Assembly: GCA_963697435.1 (NCBI GenBank)
Contig: CAVOOB010000002.1
Location: forward strand, 516,601 to 580,600
DNA: 64,000 nucleotides
Direction: 5' to 3'
Source of the DNA: an uncultured Gemmatimonadales bacterium
GTDB lineage: Bacteria; Gemmatimonadota; Gemmatimonadetes; Gemmatimonadales; GWC2-71-9
In this document: positions 6,671 to 35,944 of the stretch, piece by piece
Position numbering within the stretch: the first letter of the stretch is position 1
Layout of the letters: the number at the start of each line of letters is the position of its first letter
Translations under genes and position numbers: made by a program
The notes under the pieces: model-generated
What the model was told of the DNA's origin: nothing
Seen by the model: only the letters and a program-made list of their open reading frames with translations
Databases searched by the model: none

Positions 6671-7251
6671 CCCGTGGGGCCGAGACCCAGCACGGATTCA
6701 TGCGGGCGGAGCGCCTCGAGCAGAAACTGGATCAGTTCGTCGAGGGGCCACCCCAGTTCCTCCACACCGAGGCGCACGTCCTCACGGCTCACCCCCCTGG
6801 CAAAGGCCTTGTCCTTGAGTTTCTTCAGGACGCTCTTCGGCTCGAGATCGGTCAGGGAACGGGAAGGACGGACCAGGGCACAGGCCACGAGGAACCCGCA
6901 GAGCTCATCAACGGCAAAGAGGGCGCGGGCCATCGGTGTCTCGCGCGGCACCCCGGTGTACGCGGCGTGGCCGAGGATCGCCTGTTGCCACTCTTCGGGG
7001 GCGCCGAGGCCGCCGAGGATCCGGACTCCCTCGCTGGGGTGCTCGGCGTCGGGCGCGTGGGCCGCATTGGGAAACCGCTCATAGTCGAAGTCGTGCACCA
7101 GGCCGACGGTGCCCCAGGCGTCCGGGTCCTCGCCGGCGCGAGCGGCCATGGCACGCATGGCGATCTCCACGGCGTACATGTGCTTTCGGAGCGCCTCGGA
7201 CGGGGTGTACTCGTGCATCAGGGCGAGCGCGCGGTCGCGGGTGAGCGTCAT
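6667..7251 (-). CDS. HD/HDIG domain metal-dependent phosphohydrolase
   Basis: HD dyad context (GLVHDFDYERF) and conserved His residues. 4-nt overlap with the downstream cls-like gene. Confidence 0.75.
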   Translation of the reverse strand: MTLTRDRALALMHEYTPSEALRKHMYAVEIAMRAMAARAGEDPDAWGTVGLVHDFDYERFPNAAHAPDAEHPSEGVRILGGLGAPEEWQQAILGHAAYTGVPRETPMARALFAVDELCGFLVACALVRPSRSLTDLEPKSVLKKLKDKAFARGVSREDVRLGVEELGWPLDELIQFLLEALRPHESVLGLGPTG

Positions 7252-7321
7252 GCCATCTCCTCAAGGGGTCTGAGGGAAAGCTAAGGGGATGCGAGTGTGG
7301 GGTAAGAGGTCGCAGAATGTC

Positions 7322-7357
7322 GAAGGGCGGCGGGCCAGAGATGGCCCGCCGCCCTTC
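7322..7357 (-). terminator. GC-rich hairpin, putative intrinsic terminator after the SGNH hydrolase gene
   Basis: Perfect inverted repeat GAAGGGCGGCGGGCC(A)-GAGA-(T)GGCCCGCCGCCCTTC, about 28 nt downstream of the stop at 7385. The U-tract on the minus strand is weak. Confidence 0.6.
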
Positions 7358-7384
7358 GCATCTGCATCGGTGAAATTCAGCCGA

Positions 7385-8626: not shown

Positions 8627-8643
8627 ATGCTGTGATCTCCCGA

Positions 8644-10029
8644 TCAGAACGAGTAAGTCAGGGTGATGCCGACGAGATTGGCGCTGAACGTATACAGTCC
8701 GTCGTTCAACGCGGAGGTCGGAACGGCTTCGCCGCCGTCGCCGCTCCGCCCCTGGCGGTCAGCCTGATCGATGTACTGGTAGGCGAGGTCGAACCCGAAA
8801 CGGTCAGAGAGATGCGTGCCGAAGCCGGCGGTGAACTCGGTCCGCGCCGCTTCCGGCAGGTTCGGGGTCACGGTCTGGTCGGGGGCTGCCGCGTTGTGGG
8901 CGATGATACCGAGACGGGCCGTGGACTTGGAGCCGACCATGTACTCGCCACCGAGTCGCCACGACGTCGTGTTGCGATAGTCTTCCACGAGCGTCCTGTC
9001 GCCGAGGAGGCTGAAGCTGATCGGCAGGGTCTCCCAGACTTCCCAGAACTGGATGCCGACGTCGCCGAGGATCTTCAGCTTGTCGGTGACCTGGAGGGTC
9101 AGGCCCATGTTGAGCTGGGCCGGGTACGGGAGGACGGCGGCGCCGCCTTGGTCGACCAGCGGGCCGTTGGTGAACAGCGGGGCCACCAGCGCATCAACCG
9201 GCGTGCCTGCCGGGTAGCCGAGCGGGTTGCTCGGCGCCAGGTACAGATCGGTCGAGACCTGGCTGATCGTCGCCGCACCGTCATCGACATTCACGGTCTG
9301 CTTGGAAAGGTACCGGATGCCGAACGACAGCTTGTCGGTGAGCTGGGCGATGGCGCCGAGGTGGAAGCCGAGCGAGAGGTCGCTGCCGGCAAGCTCGACA
9401 TTGGCGAAATCGGTTCCATACGCGATGCCGAGATTGGCGAAAGTGATCCCACCGCCACCCGGGACCAGCTGGTCGGCGAGGTCAACCCGCTGCTTCAGCT
9501 CGACCGTCGAACTGGTGATGTCGAACCCGATACCGAAGCTGAGGCGCTTGCCGGCCTTGAGGCCGAAGGTGGGCTGGAAGTAGATGCCCTTGACCGAGCT
9601 GTAGTAGCCCAGGAAGCGGCCCTGGGCGTCGTCCGGCCATTCGATGGCCAGCCCGTAGGGGGCAAAGATACCGAAGCCGATGGTCGCCTCATCGGAGAGG
9701 CCATACCCCACGTAGACCGCGGGGACCGGATGCGTCGCCTCGACGAGGGTGCTCACTTCACCGGTGCTGCTGTTGGTGAAGTCGCCCGTCGCACGGATCA
9801 GCGTGGCCCCACCGCTGGCCACGCCCTTCCCCGCGGGGAGAATCAGGCCGGCAGGGTTGAAGAAGATGGCCGAGCCGTCGGCACACGGGGAGGCGACACC
9901 GGTCCCGCCGCGACCCATGGCACATGAACTCTGTTCGTTGACGCTGAACCCTTGGGCTTCGGCCGATCGCGGCATGACCAAGACGGCAGTCAATACCCCG
10001 GCGGCAATCCAAACCTGGAACCGTCGCAT
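8644..10029 (-). CDS. Outer membrane transport protein, OMPP1/FadL/TodX family
   Basis: Signal peptide (MRRFQVWIAAGVLTAVLVMPRSAEAQG). N-terminal hatch motif (GRGGTGVA...FFNPAGL). Beta-strand alternation. C-terminal ...GITLTYSF aromatic terminus. Start trimmed to ATG at 10029. Confidence 0.85.
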   Translation of the reverse strand: MRRFQVWIAAGVLTAVLVMPRSAEAQGFSVNEQSSCAMGRGGTGVASPCADGSAIFFNPAGLILPAGKGVASGGATLIRATGDFTNSSTGEVSTLVEATHPVPAVYVGYGLSDEATIGFGIFAPYGLAIEWPDDAQGRFLGYYSSVKGIYFQPTFGLKAGKRLSFGIGFDITSSTVELKQRVDLADQLVPGGGGITFANLGIAYGTDFANVELAGSDLSLGFHLGAIAQLTDKLSFGIRYLSKQTVNVDDGAATISQVSTDLYLAPSNPLGYPAGTPVDALVAPLFTNGPLVDQGGAAVLPYPAQLNMGLTLQVTDKLKILGDVGIQFWEVWETLPISFSLLGDRTLVEDYRNTTSWRLGGEYMVGSKSTARLGIIAHNAAAPDQTVTPNLPEAARTEFTAGFGTHLSDRFGFDLAYQYIDQADRQGRSGDGGEAVPTSALNDGLYTFSANLVGITLTYSF

Positions 10030-10166
10030 ACGTGGACTCCAATTCGGGACGACTTCAGGGACGCTCCGGGCGAACCCGGCGACTAGAGACACGAAAAACA
10101 TATCGTGCGAAGGAAAGAGTTGTCAAAGCCCACTTTCATACCCGAGCGGACGAGTCGGCAAACGGG

Positions 10167-10580
10167 TCAGTGGGCGCCGGTGGTCTTGACGCGGCTCGCT
10201 GTCAGGGGGACCCGGATTCCCGCCCCGCCGTCGATCGAGATTTCGAAGGCAAACGCCCCGGGGCGGGGGAGTGGTACATCGAAGACAAGCACCGCCCCCG
10301 CCTCGACTTCCGTCACTCCTGCGGGCGGCTCGCCAAACTGGACGCTTCCCTCGCCACCCAGCAGTTCGGTGTCGTCTTCGTCCACGAACCTGATCCGGAT
10401 GCCATGGGTCCCGATGTCGGTCCGTCGGCCGCGGACGCGGAGCACCAGGTGGGTCCGCGGGTGGACAGTGGGGAATTCGGCCACCCAGACGTGCTGGAAG
10501 ATCCCGAGCACGGAGAGCTTGCCCTGCTGATCGACCAGGGCGTAGTCGGCGATGACCGCGAAGTCGAGCCGAAGGCTCAT
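10167..10580 (-). CDS. Hypothetical protein (137 aa, beta-rich)
   Basis: Good GC3 coding bias. 4-nt overlap with the upstream PPIase gene. No motif I can name with confidence. Confidence 0.55.
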
Positions 10581-11026
10581 GTCACCCGGATCGATTCGAT
10601 GACGTCGTTCTTCTGGATCGAGTTCACGATGTCCAATCCGGTCGTGACCTGCCCGAAGACGGTGTGGACGCCATCCAGATGCCCCTGCGGGGAGTGACAG
10701 ATGAAGAACTGGCTCCCGCCGGTGTTCTTCCCGGCATGGGCCATCGACAGCGTGCCGGCCACATGGCGATGGGTGTTCTTTTCAGTTTCGCACTTGATGG
10801 TGTACCCGGGGCCGCCAGTGCCGACGCGGGGGTTGTTCGCGTCGCGGCTGAGGGGGTCGCCAGCCTGGACCATGAAGTTGGCAATGACACGGTGGAACCG
10901 CGTGCCGTCATAGAACTCCTCGTTGGCCAGCTTCTCGAAGTTGGCGACCGTGCCCGGGGTCTCTTCGTCGAAGAGGTCGGCGACGATGGTGCCGCGGCTG
11001 GTCACGATGGTAGCGGTCTTCATCAT
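10577..11026 (-). CDS. Peptidyl-prolyl cis-trans isomerase, cyclophilin type
   Basis: [34 protein letters not shown] and VFGQV motifs. Start trimmed to ATG at 11026 (MMKTATIV...). Confidence 0.9.
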
Positions 11027-11045
11027 TGATTCCGTGGGATGTGGG

Positions 11046-12254
11046 TCAAGAAGTGAGTGGGGCCCGATCGGCCGGCCGGAAAGATAGCGAGGCCGCGGCC
11101 AGCGCCGCGACCACCCAGAGCGCGCCAGACCAATACGGTGCGCCGTGGCCGACATGGTCGAACACCAGGCCGGCCCAGAGCGGGCCGAGGATGCGGGTCA
11201 GGCTGACCACGGACTGCATGGACCCGAGCACTTTCCCCTGCTCGACGCCACTGACTGTCCGGGAGACTTCCGAGGTCAGCATCGGCGCCGCGGAGGCGTT
11301 GCCGAAGGCGAGCAGCAGGGTGGCTGGATAGAGCCAGGCGACGCTCGGCACGAACGCGGTGGCCGCGAATCCGCCGGCCATGAGCAACAGCCCCCAGGTC
11401 GCGATGCGCCGTTCATGGCCTGCCGTCGGGATGCGGCGCAAGAGGACGCCCTGTACCAGGACGCTCACGGCACCGACCAGAGTGAAGATCCAGGCGTTGC
11501 CCTGGGGGCCGAGGCCAAATCGCTCCCTGGTGAACACCGCGTAGTTGGACTGGAGCCCGGCCATGGCAAAACTCATGGCGAAGATCGCGGCGAAGAGCCT
11601 TCCCAGCCCTGGGCGTCGTACTGTCTCGCCTAGGTGACCGAGGGGGTGGAGTTCCGCCAGTCGGAAGGGACGACGTTCCCGCCGTGCCGGAGGGAGCGAC
11701 TCCGGCAAGAGAAAGTAGCCCAGGGACACCGTGATCAGCGAAAGCACGCCGGCCGCGAAGGCAGGGGCGCGCAGGCTCCAGAGGCTCAACATGCCTCCGA
11801 CCGCGGGGCCCATGATGAACCCCAACCCAAATGCGGCCCCGATGAGCCCGAAGTTCTTCGCCCGGTCCTCCGGCGGCGAGACATCGGCGATGTACGCCTG
11901 TGCCGTCGAGACATTGCCCCCTGTGAACCCGTCAATCAGGCGCGCGAGATAGAGCAGCCAGAGGGTCTGGGCGAGGCCAAACAGGAAATAGCCGGCCCCG
12001 GTCCCGAGGACGCTCAACAGGAGAACCACCCGCCGGCCGTGCCGGTCGGAGAGGGCGCCGAGCACGGGGCTGGCGAAGAACTGCGCGGTGGCGAAGGTCA
12101 GGCTGAGGAGTCCGACCGTCAAGGCGTCGCTTCGAAACTCGGCGACGATGAACGGCAGTACCGGTACCAGGATCCCCACGCCGAGGAGATCGAGGAAGAC
12201 GGTCAGGAAGATGAAGAGGAGCGGCCGGTGGCCCGGCCCGCGCTTGCTATCCAC
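11046..12254 (-). CDS. MFS transporter (TetA/TCR-like drug:H+ antiporter family)
   Basis: 12-TM profile. MFS motif A ([14 protein letters not shown]) and motif C-like GxxxGP segments. Confidence 0.85.
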
Positions 12255-25504: not shown

Positions 25505-25984
25505 CTACGCCGCGGCCGGGTCGGCGAGCGAGGCCACGTCGGCAGCGCCGGTGAAGGTCAACGATTCCGAGTTCACGCAATAGCGGAGCCCGCTCGGACG
25601 CGGCCCGTCCTCGAAGACATGACCGAGGTGGGCGTCGCACCGTGCGCACAGGATCTCGACCCGGCGCATGCCGTAGGAGCGGTCCTCCTCCGTGGTCACG
25701 TTTTCGTCGGCGATCGGCCGAAAAAAACTGGGCCAGCCGGTGCCCGAATGGAACTTGTGGTCCGACACGAACAACGGCAGCCCGCAACAGAGGCAGGTGT
25801 ACACACCCGCCCGCTTGTTGTCGAGCAGGGTGCCGCAGTGGGGCGCTTCGGTGCCCTTGCCACGGGCAATGCGGTATTGCTCCCTGGTGAGTTGGGCCTG
25901 CCACGCGGCGTCGCTCTTCTCGACGCGCGGCGTCTCTACCGGCCCGACCAGCTGGCCCTCGCGATTGAACACCCTTGCGCGCAT
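25505..25984 (-). CDS. msrB: Peptide-methionine (R)-S-oxide reductase
   Basis: Two CxxC zinc pairs (CLCCGLPLF, CARCDAHLGHVF) and catalytic RYCVNS. Start trimmed to ATG at 25984. Confidence 0.9.
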   Translation of the reverse strand: MRARVFNREGQLVGPVETPRVEKSDAAWQAQLTREQYRIARGKGTEAPHCGTLLDNKRAGVYTCLCCGLPLFVSDHKFHSGTGWPSFFRPIADENVTTEEDRSYGMRRVEILCARCDAHLGHVFEDGPRPSGLRYCVNSESLTFTGAADVASLADPAAA

Positions 25985-25995
25985 CGAGTGCGCGC

Positions 25996-26524: not shown

Positions 26525-26899
26525 TCAGTCCTTTCCTCTTCGGGGCGGCGGGTCCATCGACTGGCGATCCCAGTGCAGCGTATGAAAGAGGCGGTGCAGC
26601 ACAGGCGCGAGGAGGAGGCCGGCCGCGACGATGAACACGAGTCCGGCAAACAGTGCGTACATGCCGGCGAACAGCTTGCCGGTATCGGTCTGCGGCGCGT
26701 TGACCGGTCCCATGCCGCCCAGCAACATCGCCGCGTTCAGGAAGGCGTCGCGCCAGGCGAGTTCTTCGAACTGAATGTAGCCCAGCATCCCGATGGCCAC
26801 TGAGATCCCGACCAGGGCGAGCGTCACTGCCAGGTGTCGTCCCAGGCGCTGAATAAACGCCCTCATGGGCAGCGGGCGATCCCTTCGTGATTCGTACAT
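26525..26899 (-). CDS. Small 2-TM membrane protein with K+-channel-like pore loop but non-canonical filter
   Basis: TM1 - WRDAFLNAAMLLGGMGPVNAPQTDTGKLFAGMYALFAGL - TM2 aligns by eye to the pore helix/filter/inner helix pattern DAxYFxxxTxTTVGYGDxxPxTxxGKxF. TTVGYGD is replaced by LLGGMGP. Confidence 0.55.
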   Translation of the reverse strand: MYESRRDRPLPMRAFIQRLGRHLAVTLALVGISVAIGMLGYIQFEELAWRDAFLNAAMLLGGMGPVNAPQTDTGKLFAGMYALFAGLVFIVAAGLLLAPVLHRLFHTLHWDRQSMDPPPRRGKD

Positions 26900-26971: not shown

Positions 26972-27283
26972 TCAAGTCGATGACACGTCGTGCCAGAAGG
27001 AAATCTCCGGCGGGCCGGCGAAAATGGTCGCGGCGCTCTGGATGAACGCCTGGATGTGCGGGGTCTGCATGTGCGGGCCGGTGTAGGCGGCTTGGGAGGT
27101 CCAGCGTTCGTACAGCAGGAACTGGGTGTCGTCCGCCGCGTCCTGCAGGGTGGTGATCTCAAGGCAGTCAGGTTCCCTGGCGAGCACCGTCCGGATCAGG
27201 GGGGCCAGCGCCGCCCGTGCGGCGGCACCCTTGCCGGGTTGTGCGCGGTACCTGATGACGACCGTGACGGGGGTGGCGGGCAT
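26972..27283 (-). CDS. ABM (antibiotic biosynthesis monooxygenase-like) domain protein
   Basis: About 103-aa ferredoxin-like alpha+beta pattern (VTVVIRYRAQPGK...FLLYERWTSQAAYTGPHMQTPHIQAF). Start trimmed to ATG at 27283. Lies 23 nt downstream of the flavoprotein gene. Confidence 0.7.
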   Translation of the reverse strand: MPATPVTVVIRYRAQPGKGAAARAALAPLIRTVLAREPDCLEITTLQDAADDTQFLLYERWTSQAAYTGPHMQTPHIQAFIQSAATIFAGPPEISFWHDVSST

Positions 27284-27306: not shown

Positions 27307-28674
27307 TCAACGAATATCCCCCGCCCTTGGCGAATGCGCCAGCGCCAGGCGCGCCTCTTCGCCCGCGGCCGCGGTCAGGTCCTGGTCGCCCATGGCCACG
27401 CCGACCTTCTTCAGGAACGCGTTGGGCGGTTCGCCACCGGCGAATACCCACATCCAGTCGTTCGGTAGTTCGGTCACAGTGCCGCCGACGGAGATCAACA
27501 CCGACTGCTCGCGCACTTCCGTCGGCTGGGATTCGAAGAGCACGCGGAGCTTCTTCCCTTTCACGGCCTCCTGCAGCTTCCTGGCGTTCCGCTCCTTGAT
27601 CCGGCTGAACTCCGCCTTCCGATAGGAGAGGGTCACCTGGTTCCCCTTCTGATACGCCAGGCCGAGCGCAGCCTCCACCGCACTGTCGCCCCCGCCGACC
27701 ACGAGAATCTTCGAATCGACGTAGGCGTCCGCCTCGATCAGGCTGTACATCACCTTGGGCAGTTCCTCTCCCGGGATGTTCAGCTTTCTCGGCGTCCCAC
27801 GGCGGCCGAGGGCCAGGACGACATGCCGGGTCCGGTAGGTGCCGCCCGTGCTCGTGATGCGGAACGTCGCGTCAGCTTCCCGGTCGATCGACTGCACCTT
27901 TTCGCCAGTGCGAATCTCAAGTCCCGCCTCCTTGATCACGGCACTCCAGAATTCAAGCAGCTCCTCCTTGGAAATTTCGAGCTTCTTGAATTTGCCGTGG
28001 AGCGGGAACTCCACCGGACTCGTCATCACCAGCTTTTGCCTGGGATACTTGGCCACCGTCCCCCCGACCGCTTCCTGCTCGAGGGTCACGTAGGTGAGCG
28101 CCCGTTCCACGGCGCGCAGCGACGCGCTCAGCCCACCGGGGCCCGCGCCGACGATGCACACGTCGCGGACGTCGGGCGCGCTGGGTTGTGAGGCGACCCG
28201 GCGGGCGATCGTGTCCATGCATTCGCGGCCCTGGTTCACCGCGTTCTTGATCAGCGCCAGCCCGCCGAGCTCGCCGATGATGAACAGGCCGGGGATGTTG
28301 CTCTCGAATTCCCGCGAGAGCCGCGGCATGTCGGCGCTGATGCTCGGGTTGGCCATCACGATCTCGATGGCGCCGACCGGGCAGACCTCGGCGCAGAGCC
28401 CATGGCCGATGCACTTGTGCCCGTTGATGATGGCGGCCTTGCCCGCGATCACGGCCAGGACATTCCCTTCCGGGCAGACGTCGATACAGGCGCCGCAGCC
28501 GATGCAGTGCGACACGTCGATGTGCGGATGCTGCGCCCGCGGTCCGCTCGAATGAAGCTTGCCGCGTTCGGCGGCGGCCAGCGCCGCCTGCTCCCGGCGG
28601 TGGGTCTTCCGGATGTGGAGGACCAGCGGGCCGATGAGGAAGAGGCCAAAGACGACGTAAATCAGCAGGTCCAT
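27307..28674 (-). CDS. Membrane-anchored 2x[4Fe-4S] ferredoxin domain fused to FAD/NAD(P)-binding pyridine-nucleotide-disulfide-oxidoreductase-like domain
   Basis: N-terminal TM (MDLLIYVVFGLFLIGPLVLHI) followed by RKTHRRE (positive-inside). CIGCGACIDVCP and CIGHGLCAEVCP clusters. Dinucleotide folds VCIVGAGPGGLSAS and ILVVGGGDSAVEAAL. ATG at 28674 is preferred over the TTG at 28716 used by the track. Confidence 0.85.
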   Translation of the reverse strand: MDLLIYVVFGLFLIGPLVLHIRKTHRREQAALAAAERGKLHSSGPRAQHPHIDVSHCIGCGACIDVCPEGNVLAVIAGKAAIINGHKCIGHGLCAEVCPVGAIEIVMANPSISADMPRLSREFESNIPGLFIIGELGGLALIKNAVNQGRECMDTIARRVASQPSAPDVRDVCIVGAGPGGLSASLRAVERALTYVTLEQEAVGGTVAKYPRQKLVMTSPVEFPLHGKFKKLEISKEELLEFWSAVIKEAGLEIRTGEKVQSIDREADATFRITSTGGTYRTRHVVLALGRRGTPRKLNIPGEELPKVMYSLIEADAYVDSKILVVGGGDSAVEAALGLAYQKGNQVTLSYRKAEFSRIKERNARKLQEAVKGKKLRVLFESQPTEVREQSVLISVGGTVTELPNDWMWVFAGGEPPNAFLKKVGVAMGDQDLTAAAGEEARLALAHSPRAGDIR

Positions 28675-28919
28675 TGTCACTCGGAAGTGTGGGTCGATCG
28701 GCGATGCAGGGTGCAAGTGGGACGGGCAGACTGCACGTGAGGCGCGTCACGCTCGGCCGACGGATGGTCCGGCGGCGCCCGAGTCGATGCACCGTTTGCG
28801 CCTTTCCTCCGGCCGAGCTCGGCCGGGAACAGCGGCGGGGGACCCGGCCAGCCCCCGCGGTACCGCATTCCGCGTTTCGCGACTGAAACATGCCGATCCA
28901 TCCGTAACGAATCGTTGCA

Positions 28920-29045
28920 CCACGAGAGGGCGTCCAATCCAACGTATATGAGTTAACATGTTGTTGTACAACTATTTACGCTACTTCTTCATGATTTGCT
29001 CATTCGGGTAGGAACCTTGCTGAATATGGGTCCGTATTCCTACGG
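28920..29045. promoter_or_regulatory. AT-rich island with clustered palindromes in the divergent intergenic region (candidate promoters/operator)
   Basis: The only markedly AT-rich stretch for many kb. GTTAAC (28952-57), AACATGTT (28955-62), perfect 10-bp palindrome GTTGTACAAC (28963-72), TCATGA and ATGA-N5-TCAT (about 28989-29003). It lies between divergent starts at 28674 and 29069. Confidence 0.45.
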
Positions 29046-29068
29046 CCATCCAGTCACGGACCCACCGC

Positions 29069-30115
29069 ATGACCCCCCACCAGATGGGGGGCGGGGGCGC
29101 GTCGGCTGGCACCCACTCGACCGAAAGCTCGATGTCCACTTCGAATTTGGCTCCCGCCCCTCGCGTTGCTGCCCTGACCGAACGCCCCGTCGCGCCATCG
29201 GCGCCCGTACGCGCACATGTCCCCCGGCGCCCAGTGCCGAAGGCGAAGCGGTCGAAGGCGATGACCGCCGCCCTCGTCTTCGGCGCGGGGCTGGTGGCGT
29301 TGAATCTATTCGGAATGCGGTACTACCTGCTGCCTCGCGCCGAGCAGGTTCGCGACCCGCTCCATGCCTGGCTGCGTCCCTCAGGGTACCTCGGGCAGAC
29401 GGCGGGCGTCCTCGCGCTCCTGATCTTTCTCTTCCTCTGGTTGTACCCGCTTCGGAAGAAGTTCCGGTGGCTCGCCTTCACCGGCGCCATCTCCAAGTGG
29501 CTGAACGTACACGTGCTGGCCGCGCTCGGCCTCCCCCTCCTGGTGGCGGCGCACGCGACCTGGCAGTTCGGGGGGGTCATCGGCCTTGGATTCTGGTCGA
29601 TGATGCTGGTCTGGTTGAGCGGCATCGTCGGTCGATACATCTACGCCAGGATTCCGCGGGGCCAGGCCGGCGTCGAGCTCACGATCGATGAGATCAGCAC
29701 CCAGCGGCAGGAGCTGCTGAACGAGATCGCCGAGCTGTCGGGACTCGAGGCCAAGGAAGTCGAGGCGGTGCTGGCGCCTGACACGGCGCCGACGGTGGGC
29801 CTTGGGTTGTGGCAGACCATGCGCCGGATGGTTGCCGACGACCTCGGTCGGCGACGCGCGGCCGCTCGCCTGCGCCGCCAGATCAAGTTGCGCCGCCCGA
29901 TGCAACGGCGCAGCGACGCCGCAGTGCTGAAGGAAGTCCTTCGCCTCGCCAACCGTGAAATGGCCATGGTACAGCAGGCTCGCATGCTCGGCGCCACGCA
30001 GAACATCCTCCGGTTCTGGCATGTGGCCCACCGCCCTCTGGCGGTGACGGCGCTGGTGGCGGTCATCATCCACGTCATGGTGGTCGTGTCGTTGGGCGCC
30101 ACGTGGTTCCGGTAG
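29069..30115 (+). CDS. Polytopic membrane protein with two H-x13-H pairs in TM helices (candidate di-haem b-type transmembrane electron carrier)
   Basis: About 5 TM. H148-x13-H162 (NVHVLAALGLPLLVAAH) and H321-x13-H335 (HRPLAVTALVAVIIH). A roughly 120-aa charged helical cytoplasmic insert sits between TM4 and TM5. The start is uncertain (ATG 29069, 29132 or 29261). The 3' end overlaps the next gene. Confidence 0.7.
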   Translation: MTPHQMGGGGASAGTHSTESSMSTSNLAPAPRVAALTERPVAPSAPVRAHVPRRPVPKAKRSKAMTAALVFGAGLVALNLFGMRYYLLPRAEQVRDPLHAWLRPSGYLGQTAGVLALLIFLFLWLYPLRKKFRWLAFTGAISKWLNVHVLAALGLPLLVAAHATWQFGGVIGLGFWSMMLVWLSGIVGRYIYARIPRGQAGVELTIDEISTQRQELLNEIAELSGLEAKEVEAVLAPDTAPTVGLGLWQTMRRMVADDLGRRRAAARLRRQIKLRRPMQRRSDAAVLKEVLRLANREMAMVQQARMLGATQNILRFWHVAHRPLAVTALVAVIIHVMVVVSLGATWFR

Positions 30116-32157
30116 GCGAGGGCACGACCGGTGTGTTCCGCGGACTCGTTCGCGCATGCCTCCTGGCCCTCGGCTGGGTGGTGCTGATGTCCACGCCGCT
30201 GGCGGGACAGATCTCGCCGGGCCCGCTCGCAGCCGCGCACGCGACGCTCGAGGGACCGACCCAGTGCACCACCTGCCACGGCAGCCGGCGGGACGCCATG
30301 ACCGGCCAGTGCGCGGCCTGTCACAAGGATATTGGCCGATTGCTCGACCAGGGGCGGGGCTACCACGGCAGCGCCGAAGTGAAGGGCACACCCTGCGCCT
30401 CCTGTCATCCGGATCACGCCGGGAAAGGCTTCGAGATGGTGGAATGGCCGGATGGCGGCATGAAGAGCTTCGACCACAAACGCGCTGGGTGGGCGCTTGC
30501 GTTGAAGCACGCCGAGGCCACGTGCGCGGATTGTCACACCGACGAGTTCCAGGTGCCGGGAGTGAGGGATCTCTCCGTTCGAACGACCGGGCAGGGCTAT
30601 ACCGGTCTGGACCCCACCTGTACCAGTTGCCACGAGGACATCCATCGCGGGGCGCTCAAGCAGAACTGCACGGTATGCCACGATGCCGGTTCGTGGTCCG
30701 TCACCCCGGGGTTCGACCACGACACGACGGCGTATGCGCTCACTGCCAGGCACGCCGATGTGAAGTGCGACGACTGTCACCTCGACGCTCGGCTCTCACC
30801 CCGGAGCGACGGGAAGGGGCACCTGATCCCCGTGTACAAGCCGGTGTCGTTCGAGTCCTGCGCCAGCTGCCACACCGACCCGCACAGTGGGGGGCTGGGC
30901 CCGAAGTGCGCCGACTGCCATAGCACGCGCGGGTTCCAGGTCATCGACAAGAACCGGTTCGACCATGACAGAACCAAGTATCCGCTGCGCGGCAAGCACG
31001 TGACCACGGCCTGCGCCAGGTGCCACAAGGACTTCTCGACGCCGGCCCTGAAGACGCCGAAGTTCGCCACTTGCGTCGAGTGCCACACGGACGCCCACAA
31101 CGGGACCGCCACTCTCGCCGGCAGGCGGGTCGATTGCGCCTCGTGCCACTCGGTCAACGGATTCGCCCTGTCGACGTATACGACCGCGAGCCATGCCACG
31201 ACCCCGTACCCGCTTGAGGGCAAGCACCTGACGGTGAAGTGCGCCGCCTGCCATAGCCGGAGCACCGCGACGACTGCCGCGAAGACGCTCGGCAGTGCCA
31301 GGGTCGTGATACGGCCGAAGTACGCACAGTGCACGGACTGCCATGCTGACGATCATGGCGGCCAACGAATGGCGAGCACCAACAAGGGCGAGTGCGCCGC
31401 CTGCCACCGTGTGACAGGGTGGACTCCGAGCACCTTCGACAGTGCCGCACACGCACAGACGAATCTGGCCCTCGATGGTCGCCACCAGGAGATCGCCTGC
31501 GTGGCCTGTCACGGCCTCGCGCGCGCCGAGCTCCCGCCGATGACCGGGACGGCGACGATCGGCAAGGCTGGATTCCGGTTCCGGATTACCGAGACGGAGT
31601 GCGCCGCCTGCCACACCGATCCGCACCGTGGCCGATTCTCCGACGGGGGCTCCGGGGTCACGCCAATGGGTTGCCCCGCCTGCCATGGCATGCGGGCCTT
31701 CCGGCCGTCGACCACCGACATCGCGGCACACGCCCGATTCGAGTTTCCACTGGAGGGTGCGCACCGTGCCACCCCCTGCTCAGCCTGTCACGACGAACTG
31801 ACGCGCCCTGCCTCCGCCGCCCGGTCCACGCTGGTCCGGGGCTCGGGCGGGTTTGCCGACCTCCGGTTCGAGGCAACGCGGGAATGCGCCGCTTGCCACG
31901 AGACGCCGCACGGCGATCAGTTCGCCGCCTGGGACGCCCGGGGAGGCTGCGCCGCTTGCCACACGGTGGCCGCCTTCGTCCCGGCGGCCAACTTCGATCA
32001 CGACACCGACGCCTCGTTTTCGACCAGGGGCGCCCACGAACGGGTGCCGTGTGCGCGGTGCCATGTGCGTGATGCGGCCGCCCTACCCACGGAACCGTTG
32101 CGCTATCGCCCGTTGTCGGGGCGCTGCGAGGCCTGCCACGGCAAGGAGTCACCATGA
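30103..32157 (+). CDS. Secreted multihaem cytochrome c with 23 CXXCH motifs
   Basis: I counted 23 CXXCH in the translation. Signal peptide (ACLLALGWVVLMSTPLAGQ), no lipobox. Six recognisable three-haem modules CxxCHxDxHxG ... CxxCH ... FDH..T.y.L.G.H....CxxCH. The start is GTG at 30103 or GTG at 30133. Confidence 0.9.
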   Translation: MVPVGEGTTGVFRGLVRACLLALGWVVLMSTPLAGQISPGPLAAAHATLEGPTQCTTCHGSRRDAMTGQCAACHKDIGRLLDQGRGYHGSAEVKGTPCASCHPDHAGKGFEMVEWPDGGMKSFDHKRAGWALALKHAEATCADCHTDEFQVPGVRDLSVRTTGQGYTGLDPTCTSCHEDIHRGALKQNCTVCHDAGSWSVTPGFDHDTTAYALTARHADVKCDDCHLDARLSPRSDGKGHLIPVYKPVSFESCASCHTDPHSGGLGPKCADCHSTRGFQVIDKNRFDHDRTKYPLRGKHVTTACARCHKDFSTPALKTPKFATCVECHTDAHNGTATLAGRRVDCASCHSVNGFALSTYTTASHATTPYPLEGKHLTVKCAACHSRSTATTAAKTLGSARVVIRPKYAQCTDCHADDHGGQRMASTNKGECAACHRVTGWTPSTFDSAAHAQTNLALDGRHQEIACVACHGLARAELPPMTGTATIGKAGFRFRITETECAACHTDPHRGRFSDGGSGVTPMGCPACHGMRAFRPSTTDIAAHARFEFPLEGAHRATPCSACHDELTRPASAARSTLVRGSGGFADLRFEATRECAACHETPHGDQFAAWDARGGCAACHTVAAFVPAANFDHDTDASFSTRGAHERVPCARCHVRDAAALPTEPLRYRPLSGRCEACHGKESP

Positions 32158-33902
32158 GACGCCTGATCTGGCTTCCACTCCTGGCGCTGTCGCTCGCGTT
32201 GGTCGCGGGCGACCTCGCCGCGCAGGAACGGACCACCTCACCGCACGGCGACCTCCAGACCCAGTGCACGGTCTGCCACGGGCCGGATAGCTGGACGGCG
32301 CTTCAGATCAGCAGCCAGTTCGATCACGGGAAACTCGGCTTCCCGTTGACCGGCGCGCACGGCGCGACCACGTGCCGGGCATGTCATACCTCGCTGGACT
32401 TCAAGCTGGCGAGCTCGGACTGCACCGTGTGTCACAGCGACAACCATCGTGGCGAGTTGGGCCCGAACTGTGCCCGGTGTCACACGACGCGCACCTTTGT
32501 CGACCGGGACCTCATGGTTCCGGCGCATCGGTTGACGCGCTTCCCCCTGTCCGGCGGCCACCTGGCGGTCGAGTGCACGCAGTGCCATGCACCGGGCGTT
32601 GGTGGGCAGATGCAGTTCGTAGGGACCTCCACGGCGTGCTTCTCCTGTCACCAGCCCGATTACAACGCTGCGGCGAATCACGTCACGTCGAGCTTCCCCA
32701 CGAGCTGTGAGGGGTGCCACTCGACGGTGGCCTGGAACGCGGCAAACCTCGGGGCGGGGAACCACCCGACGTCGCCCATCGCCCTCACCGGCGTGCACAG
32801 CAGCAACCTGGTGACCTGCGCCCAGTGCCATACGTCGCAGCCCTACACCGCGGTCGCGCGCACCTGTGACGGTTGCCACCACCAGGAGTACCTGTCCACC
32901 AGCGATCCGAACCACGCCGCCTCGGGGTTCTCGACCGACTGTGTGTCGTGTCACCAGCCGGTCGCCAACTGGGCCGGTGCCAAGTTCAATCACCCCTCGG
33001 CGCCGATCGCCCTGACGGGTCCCCACAGCGTCAACCTGGTGGAGTGCACGCAGTGCCACACCAGCCAGCCGTACTCCTCGGTGAGGCAGACCTGCGACGG
33101 CTGCCACCATGCGGAGTACGTGGCCACGACCGACCCGAGCCATGTCGCGGCGGGATACAGCACCGACTGCGCTTCCTGCCACCAGGTCGTCGCCAACTGG
33201 GTGGGTGCCACGGCCAACCACCCGACCACCCCGATCGCGCTCACGGGCGTGCATAGCGCCAACCTCATCCCGTGCACGCAGTGTCATACCACCTCACCCT
33301 ATTCAACGGTGAAGCAGACCTGTGACGGCTGCCACCACGCAGAGTACGTGGCCACTACCGACCCAAATCACGTCTCGGCAGGGTATGGCATCGACTGCGC
33401 CTCCTGCCACCAGCCGGTGGCGAACTGGGCAGGGGCGAACGCCAACCATCCCACCACACCGATCGCGCTGACGGGCGTGCACAGCGCCACTATGGTCACG
33501 TGCACCCAGTGCCACACGACTTCCCCGTACTCGAGCGTGCAGCGCACCTGCGACGGATGCCATCATCCCGAATACGTGCAGCCGACCGACCCCAACCACG
33601 TCATGGCCAACTTCTCGACCACCTGCACGGCCTGCCATGGGTTGGTAGCGAACTGGGCAGGGGCGAAGTTCACCGCGCACGATGGGAGCGTGTCGCAGTT
33701 CCGGATCTACAGCGGCAAGCATAACAACCGGTGGAGCAACTGCGCGGAGTGCCACGCTGCCGGACAGTCGTATGCCGCCACGCCGGCGTTGCTCTGCCTG
33801 AATTGCCACGCGAAAGTCCAGACGGACAAGCACCGCGGGAAGAACTACACGCCCAGCGACTGCGTGCGGTCGGGCTGCCACGCGAACGGATCCAACCCGT
33901 GA
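32154..33902 (+). CDS. Secreted multihaem cytochrome c with 21 CXXCH plus one C-terminal CX4CH motif
   Basis: ATGA overlap with the upstream cytochrome gene. Signal peptide MRRLIWLPLLALSLALVAGDLAAQ, no lipobox. 21 CXXCH counted, plus CVRSGCH near the C-terminus. Recurrent CDGCHH. Confidence 0.9.
   Translation: MRRLIWLPLLALSLALVAGDLAAQERTTSPHGDLQTQCTVCHGPDSWTALQISSQFDHGKLGFPLTGAHGATTCRACHTSLDFKLASSDCTVCHSDNHRGELGPNCARCHTTRTFVDRDLMVPAHRLTRFPLSGGHLAVECTQCHAPGVGGQMQFVGTSTACFSCHQPDYNAAANHVTSSFPTSCEGCHSTVAWNAANLGAGNHPTSPIALTGVHSSNLVTCAQCHTSQPYTAVARTCDGCHHQEYLSTSDPNHAASGFSTDCVSCHQPVANWAGAKFNHPSAPIALTGPHSVNLVECTQCHTSQPYSSVRQTCDGCHHAEYVATTDPSHVAAGYSTDCASCHQVVANWVGATANHPTTPIALTGVHSANLIPCTQCHTTSPYSTVKQTCDGCHHAEYVATTDPNHVSAGYGIDCASCHQPVANWAGANANHPTTPIALTGVHSATMVTCTQCHTTSPYSSVQRTCDGCHHPEYVQPTDPNHVMANFSTTCTACHGLVANWAGAKFTAHDGSVSQFRIYSGKHNNRWSNCAECHAAGQSYAATPALLCLNCHAKVQTDKHRGKNYTPSDCVRSGCHANGSNP
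32760..33671 (+). repeat. Four in-frame tandem repeats of 228 bp (76 aa, three CXXCH each) inside the second cytochrome gene
   Basis: Units start at 32760, 32988, 33216 and 33444, each beginning NHP(T/S)xPIALTG.HS...C(A/T)QCHT..PY....(R/Q)TCDGCHH.EY....DP.H......(T/I)(D/T)C.(S/A)CH..VANW.GA. A degenerate half unit precedes them (CFSCHQPDYNAAANH...CEGCH). Confidence 0.9.
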
Positions 33903-35944
33903 GCCCACGCGCGAGGCGCCTGACAGGGCTGCTCGGAATGGCATTGCTGGCGGCGTGCACCGCCGGCGAGGCCCGCGCCCAGGACTCGACCGAGGTGGTC
34001 GCGCTCTACATGAAGGAAGGGGCGGTTATCCGCGGGCGTATCCTCGCGGACAACGGCCCGAACGGTATTCGGATCCGGAGCCAGCAGTCGGGCGCGACGT
34101 TCGTGGTTGCGGCCGCGCAGATCGACAGCGTGGTACGGCCCAAAGCGTCCGTATCGCCATCGACGCCCGTGCCCGAGCCGATGGTACCTGCCTCGCAAGC
34201 ACTGGACACTCCGGCACCACCTCCGAGTCCTGCGGCGGCCACCGCGGTGGACACCGCACCCATGACGATCGATGTGGCCTCGCCGACCACAGTTATGGAA
34301 GGACTCGCGCCGCCACCCAGTGCGGTGCCGGCGCAAGACATGATCGCGCCAGTCGTCATCGACACCGCCCCGCCCGACACGGCCGCGCACCGGACGACCG
34401 TCACTTTCATGTCCGGCGCCGAGATCTACATCGGGGCCGGCCGGCTTGACGGGTTGCTGGAGGGCTCGGAGGTCTCGGTCATGCAGGGAGACGACGTCGT
34501 CGGGATACTGCGTGTGAAATACGTCGCCTCCCACCGCTCCGCGTGCGAGGTTGTGTCGGGGGCGACCGGAATCGCGCTGGGGGATGTGATTCAGTTTCGC
34601 CGGCAGATGGCGTCCCCCGAAATGCTCTCCGCGTCGTCGATGTCCGGGCCGCCCCGCCCGCGGCGGATGAGCGGGCCCGGGCTCCACGGCCGGTTCGGGA
34701 CCCGATACCTGCGAGCGACCACGACGACGATGGCCGGCGGACAGGAACTGGGAAGCAACGGCTTCGACCAGCCCTCGCTCGACGCCCGCATCAACGGCAT
34801 CGGCCTCGGCGGCACACCGCTCGGGGTGGCGCTCGATCTGCGGACCCGTCAGACGACCACGACCTCGGCTGGCCGCACGGAGGTGGATGGACATACGCGG
34901 GTTTATCAGGCCGTCATGTACTGGAATCAGCCTGGCGCAGGCTTCCGCGCGGCCGCGGGCCGGCAGTACCTGACGGCGGTCAGTTCCATCGGCCTTCTGG
35001 ACGGCGCGTTGCTCGAGTTGAATGGGGGAAGAGTGTCGGTCGGTGCGTTCGCCGGATTCGAGCCTGACATCGCCACACTCGGGTTCTCCAGCACGGTCCA
35101 CGACTTCGGCCTCTACGCGAGCGTGCACAACCGGCCAGGGACGTCGACGGTGACGTCGGCGACCATTGGTGCCGTCGGGTCCTATGAAGGAGGAGATGCG
35201 CGCCGGGAGTGGGGCATCGCGCAGTTCAACATGAACAACCGGTACGTCTCGCTCTACCTGCTGCAGGAGCTCGATTATTACCGGCCGTGGAAACTCGCGG
35301 GGCCGAACGCCGAGGAAAGCGCCATTTCGGCGACGAGCCAGTTTGCGAACCTCTCCTTCCGGGCGACCCGCTGGCTGGCGATCAATGGTACCTATGACAA
35401 ACGCCGCAGCGTGCCGACCCTTCGCGACTTCACCAATCCGGAGACCGAATTCGATGACACCTACCGCCAGGGCTACGGAGGTGGTGTGCAGGTGACCGGC
35501 CGACAGGTGTACGGCGGTGGCGACTGGCGGCGGAGCACCGGTGGAAGTTCGGGCGGCGCCAATTCCTTCACCACGACCCTCGGCGTCAATCGCATCACCA
35601 AGTTCAACGTCGGACTGTCGGCCCGGGCGACCTGGTACCAGAATGATGTCTTCTCCGTCGACACCACCGCCGCGGTGCTGCAGACCTCCGGGCAACTCTA
35701 CTCCGGGCGGATGAGCCTCGACCCCTTCGGACCGATTCATCTTGATCTGAGCGCGGGCCTCCGCCAGGAGGACAACCCGATCGCGCTGGGGCTGCAGAAG
35801 TCGACCTGGTACGGCGTTGACATGGATCTGAACGTCGGGCGCGCCTGGTTCATCTCAGTCTCAGCGCTCCGACAGAACGATACTGCCAACCCCGGGACCA
35901 GCACCCTGACGCAGATCTACGGCGGGGTGACCTGGCGGTTCTAG
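33899..35944 (+). CDS. Putative outer-membrane beta-barrel protein with N-terminal domain and Pro/Ala-rich linker
   Basis: GTG at 33899 overlaps the cytochrome stop (GTGA). Signal sequence with possible lipobox LAAC or SPase I site ARA-QD. Pro/Ala-rich segment about aa 80-165. The C-terminal roughly 430 aa show alternating hydrophobic/polar strand pattern with Gly/Tyr/Asn-rich turns, ending ...IYGGVTWRF (terminal aromatic). Confidence 0.75.
   Translation: MSPRARRLTGLLGMALLAACTAGEARAQDSTEVVALYMKEGAVIRGRILADNGPNGIRIRSQQSGATFVVAAAQIDSVVRPKASVSPSTPVPEPMVPASQALDTPAPPPSPAAATAVDTAPMTIDVASPTTVMEGLAPPPSAVPAQDMIAPVVIDTAPPDTAAHRTTVTFMSGAEIYIGAGRLDGLLEGSEVSVMQGDDVVGILRVKYVASHRSACEVVSGATGIALGDVIQFRRQMASPEMLSASSMSGPPRPRRMSGPGLHGRFGTRYLRATTTTMAGGQELGSNGFDQPSLDARINGIGLGGTPLGVALDLRTRQTTTTSAGRTEVDGHTRVYQAVMYWNQPGAGFRAAAGRQYLTAVSSIGLLDGALLELNGGRVSVGAFAGFEPDIATLGFSSTVHDFGLYASVHNRPGTSTVTSATIGAVGSYEGGDARREWGIAQFNMNNRYVSLYLLQELDYYRPWKLAGPNAEESAISATSQFANLSFRATRWLAINGTYDKRRSVPTLRDFTNPETEFDDTYRQGYGGGVQVTGRQVYGGGDWRRSTGGSSGGANSFTTTLGVNRITKFNVGLSARATWYQNDVFSVDTTAAVLQTSGQLYSGRMSLDPFGPIHLDLSAGLRQEDNPIALGLQKSTWYGVDMDLNVGRAWFISVSALRQNDTANPGTSTLTQIYGGVTWRF

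Follow-up and report, generated by a model that had tools for sequence, protein, structure and literature searches.

A membrane-anchored ferredoxin-flavoprotein genetically coupled to a predicted PCC3 conduit: a candidate cytoplasmic NAD(P)H dehydrogenase module for trans-envelope electron transfer

To our knowledge, the well-studied Gram-negative routes of extracellular electron transfer (CymA, ImcH, CbcL and the Mto and Pio partners) all start or end at the quinone pool. The locus described here, part of a 64,000-nucleotide stretch of DNA from an uncultured Gemmatimonadales bacterium (the window), raises the question of whether the cytoplasmic end of a multihaem cytochrome conduit could instead be served by NAD(P)H. 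A gene at 27307..28674 on the minus strand, called FLAVO here, encodes a 455 aa protein for which translation, together with Pfam, NCBIfam and PDB sequence and fold matches, reveals an N-terminal membrane anchor, followed by a ferredoxin domain for two clusters and then by a FAD-NAD(P)H flavoprotein part that is TrxR/YpdA-like. It lies divergent to an operon for an inner-membrane protein (memB) and multihaem cytochromes c. We propose, with a probability of roughly 60%, that FLAVO is the cytoplasmic NAD(P)H dehydrogenase module of a quinone-independent trans-envelope electron conduit. If true, the coupling of an NAD(P)H-type flavoprotein to a PCC3 inner-membrane protein would represent a different entry point for extracellular electron transfer.

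The open reading frame reported in the initial annotation exists and is encoded on the minus strand, as are all features of FLAVO given below; its start is the ATG at 28674, and homologues share the same start. The annotated N-terminal transmembrane helix and the basic stretch behind it are likewise seen in the sequence. The anchor comprises residues 3-24 (LLIYVVFGLFLIGPLVLH; 28603..28668), and the basic stretch HRREQAALAAAERGK, which includes IRKTHRRE, follows immediately (28558-28602). Residues 2-38 form one long helix in the structure model, and the model is poor at the C-terminus, with pLDDT below 50 for residues 447-455. From the positive-inside reading, the anchor is predicted to adopt an N-out/C-in topology. 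Behind it, a Fer4 dicluster domain spans residues 50-105 (Pfam Fer4_7, 1.1e-10; Fer4, 2.1e-11) and a Pyr_redox_3 domain spans residues 174-429 (Pfam, 3.7e-43); both matches are far beyond chance.

Two CxxCxxCxxxCP clusters had been claimed for the ferredoxin domain. Sequence and alignment confirm the first, CIGCGACIDVCP (C57, C60, C63 and C67; 28471..28506), while the second, CIGHGLCAEVCP (28378..28413), reads CxxHxxCxxxCP (C88, H91, C94 and C98), with His91 at the position of the expected second Cys. This His is kept in all 24 FLAVO orthologues from other genomes, and the second position of motif 1 is occupied by Cys in 14, Ser in eight and Thr in two of them. Instead of the eight Cys of a 2x[4Fe-4S] domain, FLAVO thus offers seven Cys and one His, and the presence of two standard [4Fe-4S] clusters should therefore not be taken for granted.

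The flavoprotein part, a two-dinucleotide-binding domain delimited by Pyr_redox_3 and the YpdA alignment, covers residues 171-435 (27370..28164) and contains both of the Rossmann motifs that had been noticed, namely the FAD-binding GxGxxG as GAGPGG (residues 176-181; 28132-28149) and the NAD(P)H motif GGGDSA (residues 327-332; 27679-27696). The latter is followed by LSYRK (HRR in some relatives), and this conserved YR/HRR suggests NADPH as the donor of FLAVO. A GD-type FAD-binding segment, ESNIPGLFIIGELGGL (28258..28305), was assigned N-terminal of the GxGxxG motif because it weakly matches the GD motifs that GltD (7mfm, E 0.54) and lipoamide dehydrogenase (E 1.6) carry at the C-terminus, and it forms a highly conserved block in the FLAVO alignment. 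The order of this segment thus appears to be permuted in comparison with TrxR, GltD and lipoamide dehydrogenase. Homologues of 612 aa carry 160 extra residues, which represent a second copy of the NAD(P)-binding subdomain; these proteins were rejected as memB fusions, since the extra part is not a membrane domain.

The closest solved relatives of FLAVO are the YpdA/Bdr proteins (7apr, Foldseek E 4.5e-23), which are TrxR-like but free of the disulfide, and the TrxR-type ferredoxin-NADP+ reductases (FNRs) 3ab1, 3lzw and 6gar (Foldseek E ~1e-17). Such a fold could belong to a stand-alone thiol/disulfide reductase (TrxR or YpdA-like) or an oxidative-stress enzyme that is a chance neighbour of the cytochrome operon. 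JGI homologues are indeed named 'thioredoxin reductase (NADPH)' or 'putative YpdA family bacillithiol system oxidoreductase', TIGR04018 YpdA tops the NCBIfam matches, and an MsrB gene is located ~1.3 kb further along the minus strand. However, the TIGR04018 score of 177.1 bits is far below the cut-off of 339.9, as is that for TIGR01292 thioredoxin-disulfide reductase (77.8 bits against a cut-off of 343). Outside the ferredoxin domain only C152 and C173 are present, with no Cys after residue 173, and inspection of the sequence found no CxxC in the flavoprotein part. In the alignment to 7a7b and 7a76, GAGPGG lies opposite GGGPCG, whereby the YpdA Cys (Cys14 of S. aureus YpdA) is replaced by Gly; this position is Ala or Gly across all aligned FLAVO orthologues. 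A dedicated disulfide reductase was the outcome that the initial annotation had named against its own proposal, and the residues of both enzyme types, the TrxR CxxC and the YpdA Cys, are missing. Judged from its sequence, FLAVO can be counted neither among the thioredoxin reductases nor among the bacillithiol reductases of the YpdA kind. The extra membrane anchor and ferredoxin domain also fit a stand-alone reductase poorly. Moreover, MsrB, ABM and the other downstream genes are kept within the genus only, in contrast to memB and the cytochromes, which are kept across phyla. A stand-alone enzyme of this kind is therefore very improbable. The downstream genes (ABM, two small membrane proteins, a secreted protein and MsrB) were likewise rejected as partners of FLAVO because of their genus-only conservation.

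TrxR-type FNRs pass electrons between NADPH/FAD and Fe-S ferredoxins. FLAVO has the features of this group, namely the two-dinucleotide fold and intact FAD and NAD(P)H glycine motifs without a redox-active disulfide. It shares with the FNRs (B. subtilis YumC 3lzw, Chlorobaculum FNR 3ab1, B. cereus FNR1/2) and with YpdA/Bdr (7apr, 7a76) a TrxR fold of the low-molecular-weight type, with its two dinucleotide domains but lacking the redox-active disulfide. Unlike these enzymes, FLAVO possesses its own ferredoxin domain and membrane anchor, and its GD-type FAD segment precedes GxGxxG instead of being C-terminal. The catalytic Cys that sets YpdA apart is missing from FLAVO.

FLAVO is separated from the memB-cytochrome operon by a divergent intergenic region of 394 bp (28675..29068), and this layout is kept in the genus. 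All operon genes are on the plus strand. The first, memB (29069..30115), encodes a five-helix inner-membrane protein with four His and is, from its alignment, model, structural neighbours and published motifs, the proposed di-haem b partner. Motif counts and domain searches identify the next two products as multihaem cytochromes c with signal peptides, one with 23 CxxCH (30103..32157) and one with 21 CxxCH and one Cx4CH (32154..33902). The fourth gene (33899..35944) encodes a candidate outer-membrane barrel with a signal peptide and a C-terminal ...GGVTWRF, but no Pfam family; homologues of this candidate follow the cytochromes in loci of Gemmatimonadota, Calditrichota, Bacteroidota and Marinimicrobia.

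He et al. 2017 (Front Microbiol 8:1584, PMC5566968) described the PCC3/PCC4 inner-membrane protein as ~300 aa long with five TM helices, two WX3HX13H motifs (TM3 and TM5) and SGXXG (TM4). The same features are found in memB, where, across 32 sequences, the invariant or nearly invariant residues are W144/H148/H162 in TM3, S184-G185-x2-G188 in TM4 and W317/H321/H335 in TM5; the four invariant His thus form two WxxxHx13H pairs. Two secreted cytochromes c with very many haems (23 and 21(+1)) and a following candidate barrel ending in ...WRF complete the PCC3 gene set. The published description therefore fits memB as the inner-membrane protein of a predicted PCC3 conduit. The named type clusters of PCC3 are those of S. 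lithotrophicus ES-1 (Slit_0867-0870) and L. cholodnii SP-6. Loci of Rubrivivax and Ideonella with 24- and 61-haem cytochromes also match the PCC3 description. PCC3 is present in Fe(II) oxidisers, in which it is usually taken for an uptake system.

The memB model contains five TM helices (pLDDT 85.8), and its nearest folds are the di-haem bundles 4D2 (Z 12.0), CybB (Z 11.3) and FdnI (Z 9.8), values that are within the range reached by helical-bundle arrangement alone. The same applies to SpNOX 8qq7 (Z 9.3 over 131 residues, rmsd 4.8, 18% identity) and STEAP1 (Z 8.0), since helical bundles reach such Z by arrangement alone. No Pfam family, including Ferric_reduct PF01794, matched memB at E <= 0.01, and a Foldseek search of the model against the PDB gave no match at E <= 0.001. 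A memB profile retrieved only designed coiled coils, by chance, from the PDB sequences, and no link to solved proteins.

Whether FLAVO belongs functionally to this operon was assessed from gene neighbourhoods. Lack of synteny in relatives had been set beforehand as the finding that would count against a joint function of FLAVO with the adjacent di-haem-b-like protein and the cytochrome operon. The synteny of FLAVO, memB and the cytochromes is kept in 13 same-genus genomes, and in another family (L033) the order has changed, FLAVO lying convergent with the cytochromes at their 3' end. A locus survey seeded with the FLAVO alignment yielded 29 full-length orthologues (40-76% identity, about eight phyla) from species genomes of Gemmatimonadota, Acidobacteriota, Calditrichota, Planctomycetota, Marinimicrobia, Bacteroidota, Nitrospirota and Pseudomonadota, together with one MAG labelled Actinomycetota. 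In 24 of these 29, memB is adjacent, compared with 0 of 44 control loci (generic TrxR-like matches), and the remaining five are contig ends or clusters with inserted ccm genes. Most of the loci also include cytochromes with 13 to 61 haems. The genes occur in four orders: divergent, memB>FLAVO>cytochromes, memB>cytochromes>FLAVO, and fused. In Luteirhabdus salina TK19130 (L050), for instance, the locus reads memB>FLAVO>23-haem>19-haem>barrel.

The distribution of FLAVO and memB across genomes is patchy, and in both samples studied the two genes agree almost perfectly in where they occur and where they are lacking. Among 151 Gemmatimonadota genomes, 37 carry both genes, none memB alone, two FLAVO alone and 112 neither, and the two genes are within 6 kb of each other in 35 of the 37 pairs. 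In a Burkholderiales sample of 301 genomes, each of the 16 close memB genes has an adjacent, divergent FLAVO. PCC4-like clusters contain the same modules in another order: immediately before the gene for a memB-type protein, they encode a TrxR-like flavoprotein, then two cNMP-binding domains, then a Fer4 dicluster.

The two proteins are also found fused. P0243, a 734 aa FLAVO-memB fusion with 46% identity to full-length FLAVO and 29% to memB, occurs on four metagenome contigs from four samples, and a 659-aa multihaem cytochrome comes next. The same fusion is present in species genomes of three Planctomycetota (L046, L048 and L062). Only P0243 and these three Planctomycetota ORFs, which have clean reading frames, were counted as fusions. 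The longer memB matches P0241 and P0242, as well as P0273, P0384 and P0367, were rejected since they contain out-of-frame or antisense stretches, and were taken as signs of adjacency only. Both fusion orders are consistent with a cytoplasmic location of FLAVO. Combined, these observations strongly support the link between FLAVO and memB, and they bear out the partnership with the cytochrome operon that the initial annotation had suggested. Complex prediction for residues 60-348 of memB with FLAVO gave a score of 0.04, which is no evidence either way.

Based on this coupling, the following mechanism may be proposed. The single N-terminal helix would hold FLAVO in the inner membrane beside memB, and its TrxR-like domain would transfer a hydride from NAD(P)H to FAD. 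Single electrons would then move from FAD to the two Fe-S clusters of the ferredoxin domain, one of them with a His or 3Fe-type site, and further to the cytoplasmic-side haem b of memB, which presupposes contact between the two proteins. The electron would cross the membrane by way of the two putative bis-His haems of memB and reach the 23-haem and 21-haem cytochromes c, from which it would pass through the outer-membrane barrel to an extracellular acceptor.

This design would resemble a NOX/ferric reductase split between TM5 and TM6, in which a ferredoxin and a TrxR-type FNR replace the FNR-like dehydrogenase. NOX, FRE and SpNOX (PF01794 plus FNR-like dehydrogenase), as well as MsrQ with its separate Fre, follow the same logic from NAD(P)H via flavin and two bis-His haems b to an outside acceptor. 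The likeness extends to the His pairs of memB, which are 13 residues apart on TM3 and TM5 (the spacing agrees, the haem is putative), and to the position of the cytoplasmic dehydrogenase after an outside-to-inside helix. SpNOX is also among the best fold matches of memB, at the Z value given above. The memB protein has no sequence match to PF01794 and provides five helices, with the sixth coming from FLAVO; the dehydrogenase belongs to the TrxR-like instead of the FNR-like kind, and a two-cluster ferredoxin is inserted; FLAVO and memB are two polypeptides in most lineages; and the acceptor would be a multihaem cytochrome chain instead of O2, Fe3+ or MsrP. In the Tmc and Hmc complexes of sulfate reducers, periplasmic multihaem cytochromes are linked via a membrane cytochrome b to cytoplasmic Fe-S proteins. 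FLAVO and memB would resemble them in the transfer between cytochromes and cytoplasmic Fe-S through cytochrome b, with quinones not necessarily involved, but Tmc and Hmc belong to unrelated families (HdrD-like, NarI-like) and have neither an NAD(P)H flavoprotein nor an outer-membrane conduit.

The literature on PCC3 assumes a different cytoplasmic end. The loci in the papers on PCC3/PCC4 (PMC5566968; Hoover et al. 2023, PMC10734462) share with ours the set of a five-helix protein, two cytochromes of ~20 or more haems and an outer-membrane barrel. For PCC3, those papers list four genes, name no partner of flavoprotein or ferredoxin type, and take the membrane protein to be a cytochrome b that is quinone-active and works in Fe(II) oxidation; here, FLAVO emerges as a fifth conserved component, which points to NAD(P)H at the cytoplasmic end. 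For PCC4-like loci, the published 'other redox genes' include a Fer4_11 (pfam13247) protein upstream of the membrane protein, which here is a related flavoprotein. In open-access papers and preprints, we found no described flavoprotein partner of PCC3 and no NOX-like route to multihaem cytochromes.

If memB were a quinone-active cytochrome b, FLAVO would be an accessory of an NAD(P)H:quinone or quinol:cytochrome c module that does not bypass the quinone pool. He et al. (PMC5566968) proposed that the PCC3 inner-membrane protein exchanges electrons with quinones and likened it to the cytochrome b of bc1 and of hydrogenase. The closest solved folds of memB, CybB and FdnI, both have quinone sites, and one memB homologue gives a weak match to Ni_hydr_CYTB (cytochrome b561). 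Yet a dedicated NAD(P)H-type Fe-S flavoprotein is always co-inherited with memB, and in some lineages fused to it, and the simplest role for this flavoprotein is to exchange electrons with the haems. No quinone-binding motif was noticed in memB. We therefore regard a quinone-active memB as rather doubtful, and favour direct feeding by FLAVO.

The direction of electron flow requires separate consideration. The same complex could work inwards, with electrons from extracellular Fe(II), minerals, cathodes or partner cells passing via the cytochromes, memB, Fe-S clusters and FAD to NAD(P)+, which would shorten the path of reverse electron transport in lithotrophs. It was in Fe(II) oxidisers that PCC3-type clusters were defined, and they continue to be regarded as candidate Fe(II) oxidases; TrxR-type FNRs are reversible; and the inner-membrane component of one PCC3 copy is up-regulated in the iron-oxidising Sideroxydans sp. 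CL21 (PMC12442390). Against this, Fe(II) delivers its electrons at roughly 0 V at neutral pH, so that they would need to be lifted to -0.32 V and moved against an inside-negative membrane potential, with no coupling device evident, and most carriers are of heterotroph type (Gemmatimonadota, Acidobacteriota, Bacteroidota and Planctomycetota). Furthermore, when S. lithotrophicus ES-1 grows on Fe(II), its two PCC3 clusters are both down-regulated (PMC8788666), which fits a role other than Fe(II) oxidation. Inward flow is thus considered unlikely. The outward flow that we prefer has a cost of its own: electrons that leave NAD(P)H and cross the membrane over a pair of haems would lower the membrane potential and conserve no energy, which speaks against an obvious physiological benefit.

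Beyond this locus, it is tempting to hypothesize, at somewhat less than even odds, that PCC3-type conduits are instead, or also, fed directly by NAD(P)H via FLAVO and the di-haem b protein. With such a bacterial 'split NOX' on a chain of 40 or more haems, many phyla of soil and sediment, aerobic or facultative, would have an outlet to extracellular acceptors that is independent of quinones, and the exit cluster, facing the membrane haem, would be recognisable by the invariant His of the second Fe-S site. If true, PCC3 genes in iron-cycling surveys would no longer be read as an 'Fe(II) oxidase marker' but as a possible outlet for reduction or redox balancing, and the large multihaem conduits of Gemmatimonadota, Acidobacteriota, Bacteroidota and Planctomycetota, which are not known metal respirers, would be accounted for. 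At least two carriers are in culture, Luteirhabdus (Thermobacterium) salina TK19130 and Ideonella sp. YS5.

FLAVO (P0001), the ferredoxin-flavoprotein, is encoded on the minus strand at 27307–28674 of the window (G+C content about 68%), and its translation yields 455 amino acids. The ATG at 28674, and not an upstream TTG, was taken as the start because homologues share the beginning MDLLIY. The protein contains a hydrophobic helix (residues 3–24) followed by IRKTHRRE, a Fer4 dicluster domain (Pfam, residues 50–105) with the motifs CIGCGACIDVCP and CIGHGLCAEVCP, and a Pyr_redox_3/Pyr_redox_2 domain (Pfam, residues 171–430) with GAGPGG at residues 176–181 and GGGDSA at residues 327–332. The initial annotation is thereby confirmed for the N-terminal helix, the basic stretch, the first cluster motif and both dinucleotide motifs, while the second cluster motif, in which His91 takes the place of the second Cys, and the strand had to be corrected.

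The top NCBIfam match of FLAVO is YpdA (TIGR04018), but its 177 bits fall short of the cut-off of 340, and thioredoxin reductase (TrxR) scores 78 where 343 is required. The solved structures nearest to the structure model (pLDDT 76.6) are YpdA/Bdr (E 4.5e-23) and three TrxR-type ferredoxin-NADP+ reductases, 3ab1, 3lzw and 6gar. Enzymes of this branch operate without a redox-active disulfide, and some of them exchange electrons with Fe-S ferredoxins. An assignment as YpdA/Bdr was rejected, as alignment to the solved enzymes showed that the catalytic Cys of GGGPCG is replaced by Gly in FLAVO. It is no thioredoxin reductase either, since no Cys occurs beyond residue 173 and the CxxC is consequently absent. 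A conserved block, FESNIPGLFIIGELGG (residues 122–137), shows weak similarity (E 0.5–1.6) to the 'GD' FAD motif at the C-terminal end of GltD and lipoamide dehydrogenase; because it is situated before GxGxxG, the FAD domain appears to be permuted. The second Rossmann motif is followed by LSYRK in the FLAVO family and by CHRR in some relatives. Both are reminiscent of HRR, where NADPH-specific TrxR binds the 2'-phosphate, and hint at NADPH as the donor. Three orthologues of about 610–634 aa (P0088, P0113 and P0082; 60% identity) repeat about 160 aa of the NAD(P)-binding subdomain at the C-terminus, with a second GGGDxA followed by SYRG.

The five-helix membrane protein memB (P0121, 29069–30115) is divergent from FLAVO at a distance of 394 bp and was not assigned to any family in Pfam or NCBIfam. 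The genes after it, whose starts overlap the preceding stops, encode the multihaem cytochromes c MHC1 and MHC2 with 23 and 21(+1) haem motifs and then a secreted protein with WRF at its C-terminus, the candidate outer-membrane barrel. Alignment of 32 diverse homologues showed that H148, H162, H321, H335, S184, G185, G188 and W317 are invariant and W144 nearly so; helices 3 and 5 thus each carry a WxxxHx13H motif, and helix 4 carries SGxxG. This signature is identical to that reported for the conserved inner-membrane protein of the predicted porin-cytochrome clusters PCC3 and PCC4, which was likened to a ferric-reductase domain and guessed to be quinone-active (He et al. 2017, PMC5566968). The AlphaFold model of memB, predicted with confidence (pLDDT 85.8), has five transmembrane helices and a cytoplasmic helical insert. 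Foldseek returned no matches for this model; in exhaustive structural alignment, the best-ranked structure was a designed di-haem bundle (Z 12.0), ahead of E. coli CybB (11.3), FdnI (9.8), SpNOX (9.3) and STEAP1 (8.0), which is suggestive of a di-haem bundle, with values within the chance range for helical bundles. Several 327-aa homologues bear the JGI name 'dihydropyrimidine dehydrogenase (NAD+) subunit PreT', which is impossible for a five-helix membrane protein and was probably carried over from fused or neighbouring genes for Fe-S flavoproteins. The region between FLAVO and memB holds an AT-rich stretch at 28920–29045 (e.g. TAAATAGTTGTACAACAACATGTTAACTCATATAC on the minus strand, against 68% G+C in the window otherwise), a candidate shared control region.

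The initial annotation had linked FLAVO to the cytochrome operon and named loss of synteny in relatives as an argument against this link. The block FLAVO/memB/MHC1/MHC2/barrel is intact in all 13 same-genus loci examined. In another family (G040, L033), FLAVO sits beside the 3' end of the second cytochrome in convergent orientation, showing that the neighbourhood outlasts rearrangement. A FLAVO alignment scan with one genome per species yielded 29 full-length orthologues (40–76% identity) from Gemmatimonadota, Acidobacteriota, Calditrichota, Planctomycetota, Marinimicrobia, Bacteroidota (including the isolate Thermobacterium salinum, now Luteirhabdus salina), Nitrospirota, Alpha-, Beta- and Gammaproteobacteria and one MAG labelled Actinomycetota. 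When the loci were scored with a memB HMM and a CxxCH motif count, memB adjoined FLAVO in 24 of the 29, mostly together with 13- to 61-haem cytochromes, compared with 0 of 44 loci with generic TrxR-like matches alone. The gene orders were divergent, memB>FLAVO>cytochromes, memB>cytochromes>FLAVO or fused. Of the five exceptions, L061 and L064 are contig ends, and in L044 the cytochromes and a barrel homologue precede FLAVO, with the contig beginning there. In L058 (Ideonella sp. YS5, 5300–11200) and L059 (a Nitrospirae MAG, 5645–11239), FLAVO comes last, directly after ccmF-G-H-I, with a multihaem cytochrome further upstream, and the conduit cluster seems to bring its own cytochrome c maturation genes. 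In two Rubrivivax MAGs (L057, 1–7005; L060, 2–7021), a 24-haem cytochrome, memB and FLAVO are accompanied by a cytochrome c with 61 CxxCH, whose ORF exceeds 2,330 aa and is cut off at the locus edge.

Even sampling of Gemmatimonadota gave 151 genomes, of which 37 contained memB and 39 contained FLAVO (threshold E ≤ 1e-70): 37 genomes had both, none memB alone, two FLAVO alone and 112 neither. One of the two FLAVO-only genomes has a longer PCC4-like type. The pairs lie less than 6 kb apart on one contig in 35 of 37 genomes, the remaining two being fragmented assemblies. The distribution is patchy (23–25 of 81 genera), which makes the co-occurrence informative, though related genomes are not independent. 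Among 301 Burkholderiales genomes, 16 contain a close memB, each adjoined by a full-length divergent FLAVO, and a further 17 contain a more distant memB, with an 800–1200-aa flavoprotein 2–12 kb away in 14.

In comparable loci, this longer flavoprotein sits immediately upstream of memB and combines Pyr_redox_3, two cNMP-binding domains and a Fer4_11 dicluster. Relatives of about 830–890 aa at L068 (9719–12382), L070 (3158–5659) and L074 (4140–6773) are directly followed by a memB-type protein and a 10-haem cytochrome, a PCC4-like order whose domains suggest cNMP-regulated electron input. The 'other redox genes' and the pfam13247 gene noted in PCC4 (He et al. 2017, PMC5566968) evidently represent the longer flavoprotein. 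Hence the three redox modules recur in two independent arrangements, in both of which the ferredoxin domain is nearest the membrane protein.

A search for longer memB relatives also revealed a fusion, P0243 (734 aa), of which residues 1–446 align with full-length FLAVO at 46% identity and residues 456–731 with memB at 29%. It occurs on four contigs from four samples, its stop overlapped by a 659-aa multihaem cytochrome, and the same fused ORF is found in three Planctomycetota species genomes (L046, L048, L062). The candidates P0241, P0242, P0273, P0384 and P0367 contained antisense or out-of-frame stretches and were counted as adjacency only. In the fusion, the cytoplasmic C-terminus of FLAVO leads straight into memB, whose N-terminus is likewise predicted to be cytoplasmic from the basic residues ahead of TM1. 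The predicted N-out/C-in anchor of FLAVO is the topological counterpart of NOX TM6 beside the dehydrogenase domain, and five helices of memB plus one of FLAVO may together make up the six of a NOX-type protein.

Across 24 FLAVO orthologues, His occupies the second position of motif 2 without exception; the equivalent position of motif 1 holds Cys in 14, Ser in 8 and Thr in 2. The ligand that 3Fe-4S ferredoxins typically lack is the second Cys of CxxCxxC. Where electrons leave a protein, as at the distal cluster of [NiFe] hydrogenases, 4Fe-4S clusters with a His ligand have been described. Therefore, the family probably has at least one non-standard cluster, and we conjecture that the invariant-His site faces memB.

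In the simplest reading of the FLAVO-memB conduit, electrons would pass outward from NAD(P)H through FAD, Fe-S and two haems b to the multihaem chain, the barrel and the outside. Such flow would run downhill from −0.32 V, aided by the inside-negative membrane potential. Inward flow from Fe(II) to NAD(P)+ through the same chain, the less probable direction, would be uphill against both the redox gap and the membrane potential. PCC3 is treated as a putative Fe(II) oxidase in several of He 2017, Zhou 2022, Hoover 2023, the 2025 CL21 study, the 2026 Leptothrix study and a 2026 review. In Sideroxydans sp. CL21, the inner-membrane gene of one PCC3 copy is up with iron oxidation (PMC12442390); in published transcriptomes of S. 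lithotrophicus ES-1, both PCC3 clusters are down-regulated on Fe(II), and the authors concluded that they were uninvolved in Fe(II) oxidation under the conditions used (PMC8788666). Since outward flow would dissipate the membrane potential, we infer that the system more likely serves redox balance or electron disposal than energy-conserving respiration. The initial annotation proposed a bypass of the quinone pool; memB may carry a quinone site. PCC3 clusters and their inner-membrane protein have been in the literature since 2017 (He et al., PMC5566968), and we found no mention of a flavoprotein or ferredoxin partner for PCC3 in the studies named above or elsewhere among the open-access papers and preprints searched. 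FLAVO would be a conserved, hitherto overlooked NAD(P)H-type input module of this known predicted conduit.

Downstream of FLAVO, three further minus-strand genes were observed. An antibiotic biosynthesis monooxygenase-like gene (ABM, PF03992, 1.9e-17; 26972–27280) starts 26 nt past the FLAVO stop and follows FLAVO in same-genus genomes, not in other lineages. MsrB, a methionine sulfoxide reductase (SelR domain, 1e-49), is located at 25505–25990 and shifts position in some same-genus genomes. The gene at 26525–26899 encodes a 124-aa membrane protein with a weak cytochrome b561 match (Ni_hydr_CYTB, E 0.0024), which may be a further lineage-limited partner; its homologue (E 3.6e-39) adjoins the FLAVO orthologue in a genome of another family (G028) at L061 8665–9363 (minus strand).
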